Numbered from the stretch's first letter, positions 285-4,596 are shown. The stretch is 64,000 nt of DNA from a virus (IMGVR_UViG_3300033757_000296:32001-96000); one strand, 5' to 3'. Numbers and translations are program-made. Notes: generated from the sequence alone by a model not told the origin.

Positions 285-1754
285 ATGAAAGATTTAATCA
301 AAAAAATTAAAGAGTGTGAGAAATGTGAAATCTGCGGTCAAACCAAAAACAAAAGCATTGGACGAGGCTCTCAGGCTCCCCGTATTCTTTTTGTTGGACT
401 CAATCCAGGAACAGTTGAAAACGGCAACGGAATCCCATTTTCAGGGCCATCCGGACAATTACTGGACGAATGGGTTAAACATCTCGGACTCGGATCTGAG
501 GACTATGCCGTCGTCAACCTTATCAAATGTTATACCCGGTCTGAAAGTGACCTCAGTGGGGACGAGGCCCGGAATTGCCTTCCTTATCTCCGAGAACAAA
601 TACGAATCCTCGATCCTACCTATATCATTCCTCTCGGATCAAAACCAACCCACATTCTTCTTAATACCAACATAGGAATTATTAAATTATCTGGAAGAAA
701 GTTTACCCCCCTAGAGGAAGGGCCCTCTTATATCCCCCTTCCTCACCCTTCATACTTTCTCCGTCGTGGGTCAAAAGGTTGGGAACAATTCTTAGACTTA
801 GCAAAAGAAGCAATGGATGAAAGCAAAACTTTTACCACTTTCCCATCAGAAATAGAAGGCTTTCAAGAATCACAAAATATTGTATTAACAGAAACAAAAT
901 ATGTCCCCCTTCATGTTCATACCACTCACTCTGTAACAGACAGTTTAGTCTTGCCAGAGGAACTAGCAAAAAAATGTAAAGAAAAAGGGTTCGGAGCCGT
1001 AGCAATCACCGACCACGGATCCGTGACCGGATGGTATCAATTCCAGGAAGCCTGTAAAAAATATGAAGTCCAACCTGTTTTAGGGGTGGAATTTTATGTT
1101 TCAAAAACTTTCGGAGATAAAGACAAAGAACGAGAACACCTTGTGGTCTTAGCGAAAAACGAGATTGGGATGAGAAATATTTTTAAACTTCAAGAAATAT
1201 CCGACAGAAAAGGATACTATTATAAGCCACGGATTCGACTTGAAGATCTTTATGAATATCATGACGGACTTATTGTCCTTACTGCTTGTACCCAAGGAGT
1301 AATTGCCCAACCATTTCTTAAAGGACAGCCGGGAATGGCTGTTTTGAGATTGGAAAGGTTGAAAGAGGTTTTTGGAGAAGATCTATATCTTGAGCTTCAA
1401 CCTCACTATGAATATGACGATCAGAAAAAAAGTAATAAAGAATTAATTCGTCTTTCAGAGGAATTTAATATCCCCCTTGTAATAACCACCGATCTTCACT
1501 ACATAGAAAAAGAAGACAAAAAATATCATGACCTTTTGAAGGCCGTTGTTTTTAGACAACCATTGGGAGAGGCTGGTTTCTCTATTACAACAAATTATCT
1601 GATGGACTCGGAAGATCTAATTAGGAAGGGTAAAGATACGGCCATCCCAGAGGAAATCACGATCGAAGCTATGAAAAACACCATTAAAGTTGCAGAAAAA
1701 TGTAGTGCGAAATTGACTCCTTATAAAAACGCGTTGCCGAGGATTAAAAAATGA
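285..1754 (+). CDS. dnaE: Family 4 uracil-DNA glycosylase-like domain fused to the PHP (N-terminal) domain of DNA polymerase III alpha; first half of a split DnaE
   Basis: N-terminal part has CEKC Fe-S cysteines, GRGS..RILFVGLNPG, PFSGPSG, NLIKC and HPS (UDG4 motifs). C-terminal part has PLHVHTTHS, AITDHG, GVEFY, HLVVLAKN, KPRI, TACTQG and TTDLHY (DnaE PHP motifs). It ends at the LP linker that precedes the DnaE palm. Confidence 0.9.
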   Translation: MKDLIKKIKECEKCEICGQTKNKSIGRGSQAPRILFVGLNPGTVENGNGIPFSGPSGQLLDEWVKHLGLGSEDYAVVNLIKCYTRSESDLSGDEARNCLPYLREQIRILDPTYIIPLGSKPTHILLNTNIGIIKLSGRKFTPLEEGPSYIPLPHPSYFLRRGSKGWEQFLDLAKEAMDESKTFTTFPSEIEGFQESQNIVLTETKYVPLHVHTTHSVTDSLVLPEELAKKCKEKGFGAVAITDHGSVTGWYQFQEACKKYEVQPVLGVEFYVSKTFGDKDKEREHLVVLAKNEIGMRNIFKLQEISDRKGYYYKPRIRLEDLYEYHDGLIVLTACTQGVIAQPFLKGQPGMAVLRLERLKEVFGEDLYLELQPHYEYDDQKKSNKELIRLSEEFNIPLVITTDLHYIEKEDKKYHDLLKAVVFRQPLGEAGFSITTNYLMDSEDLIRKGKDTAIPEEITIEAMKNTIKVAEKCSAKLTPYKNALPRIKK

Positions 1755-2080
1755 GAGAACTTGAACTGCACACTCAATGGGTTTATGGTTCTCTACAACA
1801 AGCCATAACCGAACTTGAAATGAGAATGATAATCATGGCGGAACAGATAAGAAGAGCTTTTCCCGATCCCATTCAATTTTATCAAGGAAAAGTTTTGAAG
1901 GATATTAATGGGAATTTGAAAATCCCGGCGAGACATTTAAGTACTTGGGTTATGGCTTATTGGGCACAATTTGGTTACGAGATAATTATAACAAATGATG
2001 AAACATATATAACGAAAAGAGGTGATTATGATGTTATCACAAGAAACATGGGAAGATATCAACCGGAGAATCGACGATGA
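1751..2080 (+). CDS. hypothetical protein lying between the two DnaE halves
   Basis: Start overlaps the upstream stop; no recognisable motif. Confidence 0.55.
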   Translation: MRELELHTQWVYGSLQQAITELEMRMIIMAEQIRRAFPDPIQFYQGKVLKDINGNLKIPARHLSTWVMAYWAQFGYEIIITNDETYITKRGDYDVITRNMGRYQPENRR

Positions 2081-2138
2081 AATGGATTTTGAAAGGATAT
2101 TTTACGAACACCATCACGAAGCTTGGGTAAGGAAGTGA
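2031..2138 (+). CDS. small hypothetical protein (35 aa), not in the ORF track
   Basis: GAGGTGA SD at 2019-2025, then ATG; reads MLSQETWEDINRRIDDEMDFERIFYEHHHEAWVRK*. Confidence 0.45.
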   Translation: MLSQETWEDINRRIDDEMDFERIFYEHHHEAWVRK

Positions 2139-2148
2139 TATTATATTA

Positions 2149-4596
2149 ATGAAAACTTGTCGACAAGAGGCAGAGAAAAAGGGGATTGTTTTAGATGATA
2201 AATATTTATCCAGATTAGAAAGGGAAGTGAAAGTAATAGAAGATGGCGGTTTTGCTGACTATTTTTTTATATTAAAGGGTATTGTTGATTCCTGTAAAGA
2301 GAAAAGAATTTTAACTGGTTGGTCGCGTGGGTCTGCCGGTGGCTCTTTGGTCTCATATTTGTTAGGGATTACCAAAATAGACCCGTTAAAATATGGGCTC
2401 CTTTTCGAGCGTTTTCTGGACCCATCAAGGAAAGAGCTCCCGGACATAGACTTGGACGTGCAAATGAGTCGTCGCGGGGAGGTGGTTCAAGATATAGAAG
2501 ATACATATGGAGAAGAAAGTGTCTCTCATATTGTAAACTTTGTAAGATTCAAACCACGGAATACTATTAAGGATATTTGTCGTGTTTATAATTATCCTTT
2601 TACTGAAATAAATTTTTTGACCTCGAAGATCCCTCCAAGTGTTAAAACAATTGATGAAGCAGTTAAAATAACAGAGGTCCGAACTTTCTTTAATAAGCAC
2701 CCCGAAATTGAAAAGGCATGTCGAGCTTTTGAAGGATCTATCCGTGGTCTTTCGAAGCATGCCGCTGGTATTTTAATCACTCCCGGGGCTTTATCGGATT
2801 ATGTTTCAACAGTTAAGGTAAAGGGGGAAATATGTTCATGTTTTGACAAGGCCGAAGTTGAAAATTTAGGTTTGCTTAAAGCTGACATTCTGGGCCTTCG
2901 TACTCTTGATATAATTGCTCGGACCTTAGAACTCGCGGGCTTGACAGAAGAAGACTTGCCGGATGAATTTGATGACCCCAAGGTTTTTGAATTGTTTCAG
3001 GAAGGAGACTCTCTCGGCCTTTTTCAATTTGAAACGAATTTACTCACGGGAATGACAAAAAAGGTTCGACCTACCGATTTTGAAACACTATGTATTCTTA
3101 CGGCCGCCGCTCGTCCGGGTGGGCTAAATAGCGGATCTACTGAACGGTATATCAAAAAACGTCTCGGGACCCTGGAAACTTCATACCTTCATCCGGATCT
3201 CAAACAATATCTCGAATCAACTCTAGGAGAAATATTTTTCCAAGAAGACATCATGAAGATTGGAAACGAGATTGGCGGGATCGAATTAACCCGGGCCTAT
3301 CGGATGATCAAAGAAATATCAAAATCAAAAGGAGTCGAAGCCATTAATAAATATCGTGAAGAATTTGTTTTTGGAGCTCAAAAAAACGGTTGGAAAGAAC
3401 AAACCGCTCACCAAATGTTTGATGTTATTCAAGAAGCAGGAGGATACTTATTCAATCTCTCTCACGCCGTGGGTTACTCTGCATTATCATATCTAACTGC
3501 TTGGTTAAAAACCTATTATTCGAAAGAATTTTTGGTTGCATTAATCGAATTCCCAAAACCTCAGAAAAAAGAAAAGGCACAAACTATTAACAGAGCAGTC
3601 CGAGAGCTTCGGAATTTAGGACATAAAGTTAAAACCCCTGATATAAATGAGTCCGGAGATAAGATAACAATAGGTAGCGATGGGGTTGTTTATATGGGAC
3701 TATCTGATATTGCCGGAGTTGGCACAAAAGCGGTAGAAGAAATAATTCAACAAAGACCCTACTCATCTTTTGACGATTTTGTTGGAAAGGTTCAAAAAAG
3801 ACGAGTCAATATTCGTGTCTTGAGAAATTTAGTCCAAGCTGGAGTGTTCGATTCTTATGAACGTCGAGATAAATTGTACTATTCTCTGGTCAATGAGCCA
3901 TTTGAGGAATGGGATGATGAAGAAATGCACAAAAGGGAATTAACTGTTCTTGATATGCCAACAGAAACCCCTTTGATTGAATATGCTCAAAATCCATACG
4001 AAAAAAAGGTTCACATGACATCTTTAGTTGACATTGATTTTGATGAACGAGAAGAGGAAATTTTTGTTAAAGGAGTTATCTCTGACGTTACAATCCATAA
4101 AACTTCAAAAGTTCAATTGAAAGAATATTATGGTGATGTTCAAGATATGGCCGTATTTGATTTGGACGATGGTACTTACAAAGTATCTTGTTCTGTTTCC
4201 CCTCAAGCGTTACGTTCTTATAGTAAAGAAATCAACGATGGAGAGTCGGTTTTTATTAAAGGTCATACTTTTGGAATGGGGGAAAAACTTCACGTTGACG
4301 GAATAATAAGTTTATCTAACCCCAATGATAAAAAAACTCCGTTTAAAAAATATGTGGAGAAAAACAAACGTGAAGAAGAAGCCCGTAAGATATATATGGA
4401 TGGGTATAATGTAAACGTAGTGTCCCAAGTCGTCTATCTCACCTCTAAAAAGGGAAAAGATTATGCCAGAGTAATGTTTACGAATGGAGAAACCTGGCTT
4501 TGCTTTCAACTCTCTAAAGACCTAATTAAAACCGGTGAAATATTGATTTGGTCATCTAATAAAAAACCCTTTTTAAATCTGCATCGTAAAGTATAA
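2149..4596 (+). CDS. dnaE: DNA polymerase III alpha (family C) catalytic part: palm/thumb/fingers, HhH and OB-fold
   Basis: SRGSAGGSLVSYLLGIT, LLFERFL, PDIDLD (two catalytic Asp), HAAG, LLKADILGL (third Asp), FQFE, FNLSHAVGY, PDINES. Confidence 0.95.
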   Translation: MKTCRQEAEKKGIVLDDKYLSRLEREVKVIEDGGFADYFFILKGIVDSCKEKRILTGWSRGSAGGSLVSYLLGITKIDPLKYGLLFERFLDPSRKELPDIDLDVQMSRRGEVVQDIEDTYGEESVSHIVNFVRFKPRNTIKDICRVYNYPFTEINFLTSKIPPSVKTIDEAVKITEVRTFFNKHPEIEKACRAFEGSIRGLSKHAAGILITPGALSDYVSTVKVKGEICSCFDKAEVENLGLLKADILGLRTLDIIARTLELAGLTEEDLPDEFDDPKVFELFQEGDSLGLFQFETNLLTGMTKKVRPTDFETLCILTAAARPGGLNSGSTERYIKKRLGTLETSYLHPDLKQYLESTLGEIFFQEDIMKIGNEIGGIELTRAYRMIKEISKSKGVEAINKYREEFVFGAQKNGWKEQTAHQMFDVIQEAGGYLFNLSHAVGYSALSYLTAWLKTYYSKEFLVALIEFPKPQKKEKAQTINRAVRELRNLGHKVKTPDINESGDKITIGSDGVVYMGLSDIAGVGTKAVEEIIQQRPYSSFDDFVGKVQKRRVNIRVLRNLVQAGVFDSYERRDKLYYSLVNEPFEEWDDEEMHKRELTVLDMPTETPLIEYAQNPYEKKVHMTSLVDIDFDEREEEIFVKGVISDVTIHKTSKVQLKEYYGDVQDMAVFDLDDGTYKVSCSVSPQALRSYSKEINDGESVFIKGHTFGMGEKLHVDGIISLSNPNDKKTPFKKYVEKNKREEEARKIYMDGYNVNVVSQVVYLTSKKGKDYARVMFTNGETWLCFQLSKDLIKTGEILIWSSNKKPFLNLHRKV

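Follow-up and report, generated by a model that had tools for sequence, protein, structure and literature searches.

Closest described systems

In the E. coli Pol III core, which is composed of alpha and epsilon, proofreading is carried by a subunit of its own that binds at the PHP side, while the poxvirus polymerase holoenzyme includes the UDG D4, a glycosylase that is physically part of a viral replicase. Polymerases encoded by two genes are found in T4-related phages, where gp43 is split, and in Methanothermobacter, where PolB is split. PHP domains also occur outside replicases, in stand-alone phosphoesterases and in repair polymerases. For DnaE itself, ‘fractured genes’ with split inteins are known (PMC2677866), and the DnaE of cyanobacteria is joined through a split intein.

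The virus studied here is represented by a 64,000-nt stretch of DNA (hereafter the window), and its nearest isolate is PhiF1 (GenBank MK994522; host Methanothermobacter thermautotrophicus). The MK994522 record assigns ORF58 to the DnaE superfamily, with a family 4 UDG at its N-terminus, and names ORF57 the core of DnaE, so the split UDG-DnaE arrangement is not new. Like PhiF1, the window encodes a bacterial-type DNA polymerase III alpha (DnaE) as two genes, a UDG-PHP gene followed by a separate core gene, with the cut at the same place. The proteins of the two viruses share 38-39% identity, and the downstream order of PD-(D/E)XK, AEP primase-like, ERCC4, HslV-like and NrdD genes is alike. PhiF1 differs in having no ORFs between the two genes and an intein in the palm of the core gene. 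The best reading is that the window replicase joins the PhiF1-type split polymerases already in GenBank, with two subunits and a UDG tethered to the proofreading one.

Single-chain relatives share other features with the window. Taq DnaE (2HPI) and the enzymes of Bacillus phage Riggi and Moorella phage MTATph1 have the same domain order (PHP, palm, fingers, HhH, C-terminal part), PHP ligands and catalytic aspartates, and in both phages a PD-(D/E)XK or Cas4-like nuclease adjoins the polymerase. However, the DnaE of bacteria and Firmicutes phages is one polypeptide of 1026-1220 aa without a UDG, and its hosts are bacterial. Fused UDG-PHP-DnaE proteins from contigs of uncultured viruses (IMG/VR L095-L099, ~1340 aa, and L173, 1271 aa) contain the same three parts with the UDG at the N-terminus and are 32-41% identical, but they are encoded by a single open reading frame.

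With the cyanobacterial DnaE and the fractured genes the window shares a replicative polymerase carried on two genes, and with split phage polymerases the presence of mobile or accessory ORFs between the halves. Unlike these systems, it has no intein at the break, the cut separates the polymerase core exactly from the proofreading domain, and an entire virus clade has stably kept this old split. Whereas the proofreader of E. coli Pol III is the DnaQ exonuclease, the separate proofreader of the window would be the PHP domain itself. The window UDG is covalently fused to that domain.

A DnaE replicase encoded by two genes

We consider it likely, with a probability of about three in four, that the window comes from a head-tailed virus infecting methanogens with pseudomurein walls, a distant relative of PhiF1, whose fissioned DnaE replicase reassembles from two subunits. 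A DnaE-type family C gene would have been broken at the PHP/palm boundary in the ancestor of the virus clade, and the two polypeptides would associate non-covalently into a normal DnaE architecture. The coordinates of the genes are collected in Table 1.

Table 1. Features of the polymerase locus and the genes downstream of it
Feature	Coordinates	Strand	Description or evidence
UDG-PHP subunit	285..1754	+	489 aa; family-4-like UDG aa ~26-164, variable linker, PHP aa ~204-489
Gap ORF, 109 aa, lineage-specific	1751..2080	+	ORFan, without Pfam or PHROG match
Small ORF, doubtful gene	2028..2138	+	36 aa from ATG; 38 aa from GTG at 2022
Shine-Dalgarno-like AGGAAGTGAT	2130..2139	+	Read directly from the sequence
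Catalytic subunit	2149..4596	+	815 aa; palm, fingers, HhH/beta-binding-like domain, C-terminal OB-like region
Small HNH / endonuclease VII-like protein, 107 aa	4652..4975	+	PHROG HNH and endonuclease VII, E 6e-8 to 5e-7
PD-(D/E)XK (Cas4-like) nuclease	4962..5687	+	PF12705, E 1e-28
AEP-type primase-polymerase, 332 aa, Cys-rich helical C-terminal domain	5663..6661	+	Motifs, AF2, Foldseek
ERCC4/XPF-type nuclease with C-terminal (HhH)2	6889..7527	+	PF02732, E 5e-19; PF14520, E 1e-13

On the phrog_405 profile (1190 positions), the first gene spans positions 32-330 and the second 342-1105; no part of DnaE is therefore absent, and the break is clean and coincides with the junction of PHP and palm. 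Aligned to E. coli alpha, the first half covers residues 2-272 and the second 319-891. The PHP and polymerase parts lie here not on a single polypeptide but on two ORFs, separated by a 394-bp gap (1755-2148) that carries two further ORFs. The longer of these begins with an ATG that shares bases with the TGA ending the PHP gene (ATGA). It has no homologue at 11 related loci, and a search of 1.84 billion representatives recovered only the protein itself and one repeat protein. Another metagenome contig, L180, encodes the ORF with 93% of its amino acids identical. The shorter ORF has no PHROG family match, and its frame is broken in L180 by a 16-nt deletion. The catalytic gene is preceded, 9 nt 5’ of its ATG, by AGGAAGTGAT, which we take to match the anti-SD sequence.

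Among the relatives, the gap holds between none and five unrelated ORFs and reaches up to 2.2 kb, which marks it as a cargo hotspot; it is probably a permissive insertion site that gathers unrelated small genes and has no part in joining the halves. In PhiF1, an SD is followed by a TTG that overlaps the stop codon, and a few bases are common to the two genes. The L004 genes lie in one frame with a single TAA between them; an SD precedes this TAA, and the ATG follows it immediately. The overlapping or abutting ORFs and the strong SD before the catalytic gene probably couple expression in the window.

The halves might instead be joined after transcription or translation by a split intein, an intron, read-through or frameshifting, so that the active enzyme is one chain. 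Inteins are common in the catalytic genes of the clade, at three other sites and not at the break, the SNF2 gene of the window carries one, and the in-frame arrangement of L004 also speaks for joining. Still, this possibility appears very unlikely. In the window 394 bp that read in other frames and hold two ORFs lie between the genes, in relatives up to five genes intervene, and every catalytic gene is preceded by an SD and begins at a start codon of its own. A split-intein ‘fractured gene’ was rejected, as neither polymerase ORF has a Hint-family or intein match in Pfam and the ends abut on an uninterrupted DnaE profile, about 11 positions apart, leaving no space for intein halves. An intron-interrupted gene was likewise rejected, as an Rfam search of positions 1-5000 returned no group I/II or other intron family, even at E <= 1.

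A preliminary description of this DNA had proposed a natural split without intein or intron signatures, in which a UDG-linked, proofreading-type PHP gene with intact metal ligands ends before the palm and the catalytic part restarts 394 bp later with its own SD-like sequence, beyond two small ORFs. These features and their coordinates are borne out, with the second of the small ORFs being doubtful as a gene.

Recurrence and phylogeny of the split

The same two-gene layout, with the same cut boundary, recurs in about a dozen independent contigs from different projects. The split loci comprise PhiF1 (ORF58/ORF57), L002, L004, L007, L008, L009, L013, L014, L093, L094, L108/L174 and L180, and two Methanobacteriaceae MAGs are also among the carriers. 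The PHP-less cores measure 797-829 aa, and both genes are kept intact despite divergence to 35-55% identity across the clade. Since L180 has the same junction and the same 109-aa ORF, the split is not an assembly artefact. An origin of the split in misassembly, in a frameshift made by sequencing or in the decay of a defective element to a pseudogene is extremely improbable, even if the window is metagenome-like sequence and two IS605-type TnpB genes are found in the same genome: the break is shared by more than 12 independent assemblies and a cultured, lytic virus, both ORFs are full length and their catalytic residues are invariant.

In a rooted tree, the fused UDG-DnaE forms fall outside the split clade as its nearest outgroup; within the clade, PhiF1 and the window belong to different subclades. 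The fused 1271-aa form, whose synteny is the same, branches within the split clade (AU p 3.6e-7, in trees made by a quick method and for a group named after the first tree had been seen). This topology implies that the gene was split once, long ago, that the pieces were re-fused once at a later time and that the UDG was lost once. Together with the ~1340-aa ORFs, the nested form indicates that the two pieces are interchangeable with one chain. The two halves diverge in a correlated manner (r 0.68, Mantel p 2e-4), as would be expected of any two adjacent genes.

The UDG-PHP subunit

The 489-aa product matches the UDG family PF03167 (E 2e-26, aa 26-164) and the PHP family PF02811 (E 7e-41) in Pfam, and aligns to residues 5-285 of Taq DnaE. 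Its nine PHP ligands (H210, H212, D219, H244, E269, H285, C335, D403 and H405) are all invariant in the 22 family members and match the ligand positions of Taq DnaE, in a pattern of the active-exonuclease type. All 22 proteins stop after an ALPxF motif, which constitutes a common boundary.

With regard to the glycosylase, the top PDB matches, 1L9G/1VK2 and 1UI0, are family 4 UDGs, and the Fe-S cysteines C11, C14, C82 and C98 and the motif B residues H154-P155 (HPS) are invariant in the 22 homologues. Motif A of the window protein reads GLNPG and not the GE(A/G)PG of family 4, which leaves glycosylase activity uncertain; within the family, GLNPG occurs in 14 proteins and the canonical GEAPG in the other 8. 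The subunit is predicted to act as a metal-dependent 3’-5’ proofreading exonuclease of the Taq or M. tuberculosis DnaE1 type to which an Fe-S uracil-DNA glycosylase domain is tethered.

One could also regard UDG-PHP as an independent repair enzyme, combining uracil excision with an end-processing phosphoesterase, while the core replicates without proofreading or with another exonuclease. The existence of PHP domains in stand-alone phosphoesterases and repair polymerases is compatible with such a role, the window has other nucleases (PD-(D/E)XK and ERCC4), and the gap ORFs and separations of up to 2.2 kb show that tight physical linkage is dispensable. We consider it unlikely, however, because the PHP domain resembles that of DnaE (it matches phrog_405 and its top PDB matches are DnaE), its gene invariably comes directly before the core, in constant order, and co-diverges with it, and the two are fused in the outgroups and re-fused in a single nested lineage. 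The scanned ORFs of the window include no DnaQ-type exonuclease. The heterodimer of the UDG-PHP and catalytic products that the preliminary description had proposed remains our preferred reading, as an inference.

The catalytic subunit and the loss of the clamp motif

The 815-aa product comprises the palm, fingers and HhH region, and it has no PHP domain. In Pfam it matches DNA_pol3_alpha (PF07733, E 2e-71, beginning at profile position 8), DNA_pol3_finger (PF17657, E 5e-36) and HHH_6 (PF14579, E 5e-20), together with a weak C-terminal OB-fold match (PF01336, E 6e-4, 20.2 bits, under the 27-bit cut-off). Its PDIDLD and KADILGL motifs align with the D463/D465 and D618 motifs of Taq DnaE, and the polymerase aspartates are intact.

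Cellular DnaE keep the internal beta-clamp motif QxxLF, which was found at about 900-917 in all four checked, but it is absent from the window protein. Throughout the split clade, about 23 residues are deleted at this site, after the HhH domain. The enzyme has lost its internal clamp motif, and we infer that the polymerase of this clade works independently of a clamp. The loss would fit a host with PCNA but without a beta clamp, and the complete PhiF1 genome has no PCNA or beta-clamp Pfam match. The DnaE of the bacterial phages Riggi and MTATph1 also lack a clear QxxLF, so the loss of the motif is not specific to archaeal hosts.

Host

The most likely host of the virus is an archaeon of the Methanobacteriales, an assignment that rests on relatives and MAG bins and is in line with the archaeal virus proposed earlier. 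PhiF1 is a plaque-forming isolate on Methanothermobacter, according to the MK994522 record and Nolling 1993, and gene order agrees with it across more than 10 kb. A search of 185,579 species genomes found full-length matches to UDG-PHP in the two Methanobacteriaceae MAGs only. Relatives carry lysis genes with pseudomurein-binding features (Peptidase_C71, PMBR); the C39-like lysin of the window has a weak PMBR match under the cut-off (E 0.003) and is homologous (E 1e-20) to a PMBR-bearing protein of L174. A CRISPR-spacer search in 301 Methanobacteriaceae genomes gave no usable match.

Were the element a bacteriophage, the archaeal assignment would be a binning or annotation error. DnaE is otherwise limited to bacteria and bacterial phages (PMC4889955), the next-best relatives of both halves are the DnaE of Firmicutes phages and bacteria, and contamination of MAG bins is possible. 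Against this stand the plaques of PhiF1, the gene order shared with it and the lysis genes; PMBR is missing from the fused group B, one complete genome included, which unlike the window also lacks PhiF1-type synteny. A bacterial host hence seems highly improbable.

Neighbouring replication genes

Downstream of the polymerase, relatives share the order catalytic gene, PD-(D/E)XK, AEP primase, ERCC4, HslV-like and NrdD, and PD-(D/E)XK, the 332-aa AEP protein, ERCC4, p76, HslV-like and NrdD are common to the window, PhiF1, L002, L004 and others. The XPF nuclease named in the preliminary description corresponds to the ERCC4 gene, which is syntenic among relatives. The PriS-PriL primase also named there stands in part. 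The 332-aa protein has invariant DFD and SGRGFH motifs, and its AF2 model (pLDDT 78) matches CAPP Prim-Pol, the LigD polymerase domain and PriS in Foldseek (E 4e-5 to 4e-4), which supports an AEP fold; for a PriL-like part there is a weak match only, in the PhiF1 homologue. Tailed viruses commonly have AEP primases and mixed bacterial and archaeal replication sets (PMC4889955), so a ‘cross-domain chimeric replisome’ is not special in itself and the phrase was overstated.

The PD-(D/E)XK nuclease is the syntenic partner of the polymerase: it is kept in all related loci and is also located 3’ of DnaE in Bacillus phage Riggi. Homologues of the small HNH / endonuclease VII-like protein follow the polymerase in some relatives (L002, L009 and L108).

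Two genes for one DnaE

The polymerase of the window is encoded by two neighbouring genes at the start of the replication module, the first with a UDG and a PHP domain and the second with the catalytic core. On phrog_405, a single phage DnaE profile of 1190 positions, the match of the first protein runs from position 32 to 330, that of the second from 342 to 1105. The corresponding residues are 2-272 and 319-891 of the E. coli alpha subunit, and 5-285 and 384-989 of Taq DnaE. Taken together, the two genes thus amount to a complete DnaE whose break falls in the PHP-palm linker. 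The match of the core gene to the OB domain remains sub-threshold.

The PHP domains of Taq DnaE and M. tuberculosis DnaE1 are active exonucleases. The nine metal ligands of the UDG-PHP protein (H210, H212, D219, H244, E269, H285, C335, D403 and H405) align with the ligand positions of Taq DnaE and are invariant among 22 aligned stand-alone UDG-PHP proteins, while the core motifs PDIDLD and KADILGL match the catalytic aspartate motifs of the Taq enzyme. With regard to the UDG domain, all four cysteines of the Fe-S cluster are invariant in the 22-sequence alignment, as is the HPS motif, across both types of motif A, which reads GLNPG in 14 sequences, that of the window included, and the canonical GEAPG in the other 8. 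The GLNPG form resembles the MUG/SMUG-type motif. That this methanogen virus has a DnaE naturally encoded by two genes, its separate UDG-PHP subunit being predicted to act in proofreading, is well supported by the comparative evidence. The preliminary description had proposed such a natural split, which is confirmed by the domain coverage and by the same break in relatives.

Features of the window discussed in the text
Feature	Position	Strand	Length and matches
Replication and nucleotide-metabolism module	1-28 kb	+	
UDG-PHP gene	285-1754	+	489 aa; UDG PF03167 (E 2e-26), PHP PF02811 (E 7e-41)
UDG domain	285-830	+	
109-aa ORF	1751-2080		
36-aa ORF	2028-2138		
Core gene	2149-4596	+	815 aa; DNA_pol3_alpha (E 2e-71, from profile position 8), DNA_pol3_finger, HHH_6
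Predicted AEP primase	5663-6661	+	332 aa
NrdD with ATP-cone	8315-10447	+	
HslV/proteasome-like subunit	10553-11113	+	186 aa
C39-like peptidase	13633-14418		weak PMBR match
TnpB, first	17017-18087	+	IS605-type (OrfB/Cas12f-like TNB)
tRNA-Thr	18850-18923		
TnpB, second	19385-20557	+	IS605-type (OrfB/Cas12f-like TNB)
SNF2-family helicase	24910-27663	+	917 aa; intein with LAGLIDADG homing endonuclease
Myovirus-type virion genes	28-64 kb	-	capsid, prohead protease, sheath, tape measure, baseplate J
ORF with similarity to a Methanobacteriaceae genome	31624-32952	-	similar segment 32234-32616

Host of the virus

Among 50,697 phage records, the best match of both halves is Methanobacterium virus PhiF1, the nearest cultured relative, with 38-39% identity and the same gene order. 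PhiF1 was isolated on Methanothermobacter thermautotrophicus. Across 185,579 species, each represented by one genome, full-length UDG-PHP matches are limited to two contigs, both in Methanobacteriaceae MAGs, and the remaining matches are PHP-only, to bacterial DnaE. Relatives have either Peptidase_C71, the family of pseudomurein endoisopeptidases, or the pseudomurein-binding repeat (PMBR); neither was found in a group of contigs with a fused polymerase gene (group B, L095-L099), which includes one complete 148-kb genome. The C39-like peptidase of the window is homologous to a PMBR-bearing protein of the related contig L174. A comparison of 20 kb of the window with 301 Methanobacteriaceae genomes, with two candidates scored per genome, gave no array-borne CRISPR spacer match; the two matches of 34-37 bp both lie outside repeat arrays. 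With this scoring the negative outcome carries little weight. Altogether, an archaeal host of the order Methanobacteriales is very likely.

In a Methanobacteriaceae genome of 2.9 Mb, three closely spaced sites of contig 1 (G092:C1:110814-111667) have 67-75% nucleotide similarity to a segment within a minus-strand ORF of the virion module; a repeat domain common to both, or the remains of a prophage, may account for this.

Conservation of the split and content of the gap

A search of 5.8 billion proteins returned about 22 UDG-PHP proteins of 468-529 aa devoid of a polymerase domain and about 23 PHP-less cores of 797-829 aa, the latter being longer where they bear inteins. In IMG/VR, the core as a single-protein query gave no matches and an alignment-based scan was needed. 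Wherever the contig is long enough, the UDG-PHP gene is followed by the core gene in constant order, as in PhiF1 and the related contigs L002, L004, L007, L008, L009, L013, L014, L093, L094, L108/L174 and L180. The pairwise divergences of the two proteins are correlated over ten loci (r 0.68, Mantel p 2e-4). Downstream, the loci have in common a PD-(D/E)XK nuclease, in some cases preceded by a small HNH protein, then the 332-aa protein, an ERCC4 nuclease, an HslV-like protein and NrdD. Synteny in related viral contigs, which had been put forward as a check, holds for this downstream order. The HslV-like subunit of the window adjoins NrdD, and this pair is also kept in PhiF1 and other relatives.

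The gap itself differs from locus to locus. In PhiF1 there is an overlap between the genes, the stop codon of the first being spanned by a TTG with an SD ahead of it, and in L004 an SD sequence and the TAA are directly followed by the ATG. No ORFs are found in the gaps of L007 and L014, one small ORF in that of L009, two each in the window and L002, four in L108/L174 and five in L008, with DUF4406 and a P-loop kinase among those of the latter two loci. On this evidence, the fission point acts as an insertion hotspot and the gap genes do not belong to the enzyme.

In the window, the TGA of the UDG-PHP gene overlaps the ATG of the 109-aa ORF, which is followed in another frame by the 36-aa ORF, whose stop lies 10 nt before the catalytic ATG; the latter is preceded by AGGAAGTGAT. 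Neither polymerase half has a Hint/intein match, and no Rfam intron was found in positions 1-5000 even at E <= 1, which bears out the earlier statement that the break carries no intein or intron signature. Neither Pfam nor PHROG assigns the 109-aa ORF to a family, homologues are absent from eleven related loci, and its only matches among 1.84 billion representative proteins are itself and one unrelated repeat protein. In P0244, an unrelated database protein of 1048 aa, ten repeats match residues 8-49 of the ORF at 28% identity, probably owing to a coiled-coil-like repeat and not to homology. L180, a 2-kb contig from another metagenome, has the same junction and the 109-aa ORF at 93% amino-acid identity. 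Synonymous and non-synonymous changes between both versions are about equally frequent, which is mild evidence for a real gene. The 36-aa ORF is doubtful because its frame is broken by a 16-nt deletion in L180. A role of the gap ORFs as a conserved third subunit was rejected, given that no related locus has a homologue.

The core genes of L007, L009, L093 and L001/L094 carry inteins at three sites, near window residues 60, 340 and 435, unlike the core gene of the window, which has none. In the SNF2-family helicase of the window, the Hint and LAGLIDADG_3 matches fall within the SNF2 domain (aa 146-731).

Proposed fission and re-fusion

The IMG/VR contigs of group B encode UDG-PHP-DnaE as a single ORF of about 1340 aa, with no stop across the junction and without PhiF1-type synteny. 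Cellular DnaE served as the root of a core-region tree (PMSF model, quick search), in which the order from the outside inwards is bacterial DnaE, fused group B, the fused database protein P0146 and a clade with all split forms (SH-aLRT 94). Two other arrangements are nested in this clade. The contig L173 encodes a fused protein of 1271 aa with the same gene neighbours as the split forms. In L178 (6313-9632), on a long branch, a gene for PHP without UDG (303 aa) overlaps the core gene, which encodes 804 aa; ERCC4 and NrdD come next. A UDG-split clade that excludes L173 and L178, a group named after the first tree had been seen, is rejected by the AU test (p 3.6e-7). The most economical reading is that a fused UDG-DnaE underwent a single fission, that the split was then kept for long, and that one lineage later re-fused the genes and one lost UDG. 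That the genes were joined again in L173 indicates that two pieces and a single chain are functionally equivalent.

Other arrangements were also observed. L006 has a fused UDG-PHP-DnaE frame (441-3848) with a single in-frame TAA (2550) beyond which homology goes on, owing perhaps to a second point of fission, to recoding or to an error in sequencing. In L148, UDG is located between the gene for PHP and that for the core, with stop codons on both sides; in L132/L149 it comes behind the initial portion of the palm, and it is a separate upstream match in L101, L102 and L104, of the IMG/VR group L100-L104. The association of UDG with DnaE thus seems to be recurrent in uncultured viruses. The DnaE of Bacillus phage vB_BceM_WH1, annotated in three pieces with long gaps, has an intron-like look and was set aside as a different kind of split.

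Loss of the clamp motif

In all cellular DnaE proteins of the alignment, a QxxLF motif lies at about residues 900-917, and the split clade has a deletion of ~23 residues exactly at this place. A scan of both subunits for PIP-box and beta motifs found no conserved QxxLF or PIP-type motif, and the PCNA_N and DNA_pol3_beta models had no match in the complete PhiF1 genome and three related records.

UDG D4 has a clamp-tether role in the poxvirus holoenzyme, and archaeal PolB and PolD stall by uracil read-ahead. Fission and UDG fusion could jointly have adapted a bacterial-type replicase to an archaeal host devoid of a beta clamp, although we consider this unlikely. The UDG-PHP subunit may then be more than a proofreader, its Fe-S UDG domain serving as a DNA-tracking or uracil-sensing module; this domain may replace the clamp tether, as D4 does, or might mimic the read-ahead stalling of the archaeal polymerases. 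If so, the outcome would be a family C holoenzyme that works independently of a clamp, a type so far undescribed. Archaeal viruses are not alone in having lost the clamp motif, as two Firmicutes phage DnaEs are also without a clear one.

Relation to known systems

Family C polymerases count as a hallmark of bacteria. Among viruses, a 2016 survey of viral replication proteins found them confined to bacteriophages (PMC4889955). Our literature search found no discussion of a family C polymerase or DnaE in an archaeal virus; an earlier description in the methanogen-virus literature is possible. In the PhiF1 record (MK994522), ORF58 is already annotated as DnaE-superfamily with an N-terminal family 4 UDG, and ORF57 is the DnaE core. 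The split DnaE of the window is another case of this publicly recorded layout, and its own value is modest: one extra member and one extra gap variant. New for this kind of DnaE are the hotspot behaviour of the gap, the history of fission and re-fusion and the loss of the clamp motif. A methanogen virus clade replicating with DnaE would be a natural experiment in which a bacterial replicase has been moved into an archaeal cell; the enzyme of this clade is divided into a predicted proofreader with a tethered UDG and a core from which the beta-clamp motif has been lost. The clade would also provide a ready-made two-piece DnaE for the study of PHP exonuclease docking on the core, and PhiF1 is a member cultured on a tractable thermophile.

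Neighbouring genes

The preliminary description had placed an XPF nuclease and a PriS-PriL primase beside the polymerase. The former is borne out by an ERCC4 + (HhH)2 nuclease in the window. As for the primase, DFD and SGRGFH motifs are invariant in the 332-aa protein, and a fold search with its AlphaFold model (pLDDT 78) led to structures of Prim-Pol, LigD-polymerase and PriS, so that on motifs and predicted fold it is an AEP primase. The PriS-PriL assignment is plausible but tentative: the C-terminus is Cys-rich and helical, and in the PhiF1 homologue it gives no more than a weak PriL match. A PDB profile search with this family led to polyubiquitin chains, rejected as a chance SGRGFHIF match across ubiquitin junctions multiplied by the repeats. 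The earlier framing as a cross-domain chimeric replisome is overstated, since a quarter of phage genomes have AEP primases and tailed viruses as a rule combine replication proteins of mixed origin (PMC4889955), which makes a mixed bacterial and archaeal set ordinary.

Further downstream, the two TnpB genes of the window are separated by a 245-aa ORF without a family match and a tRNA-Thr; TnpB genes also lie near the polymerase module in L007 and L008.
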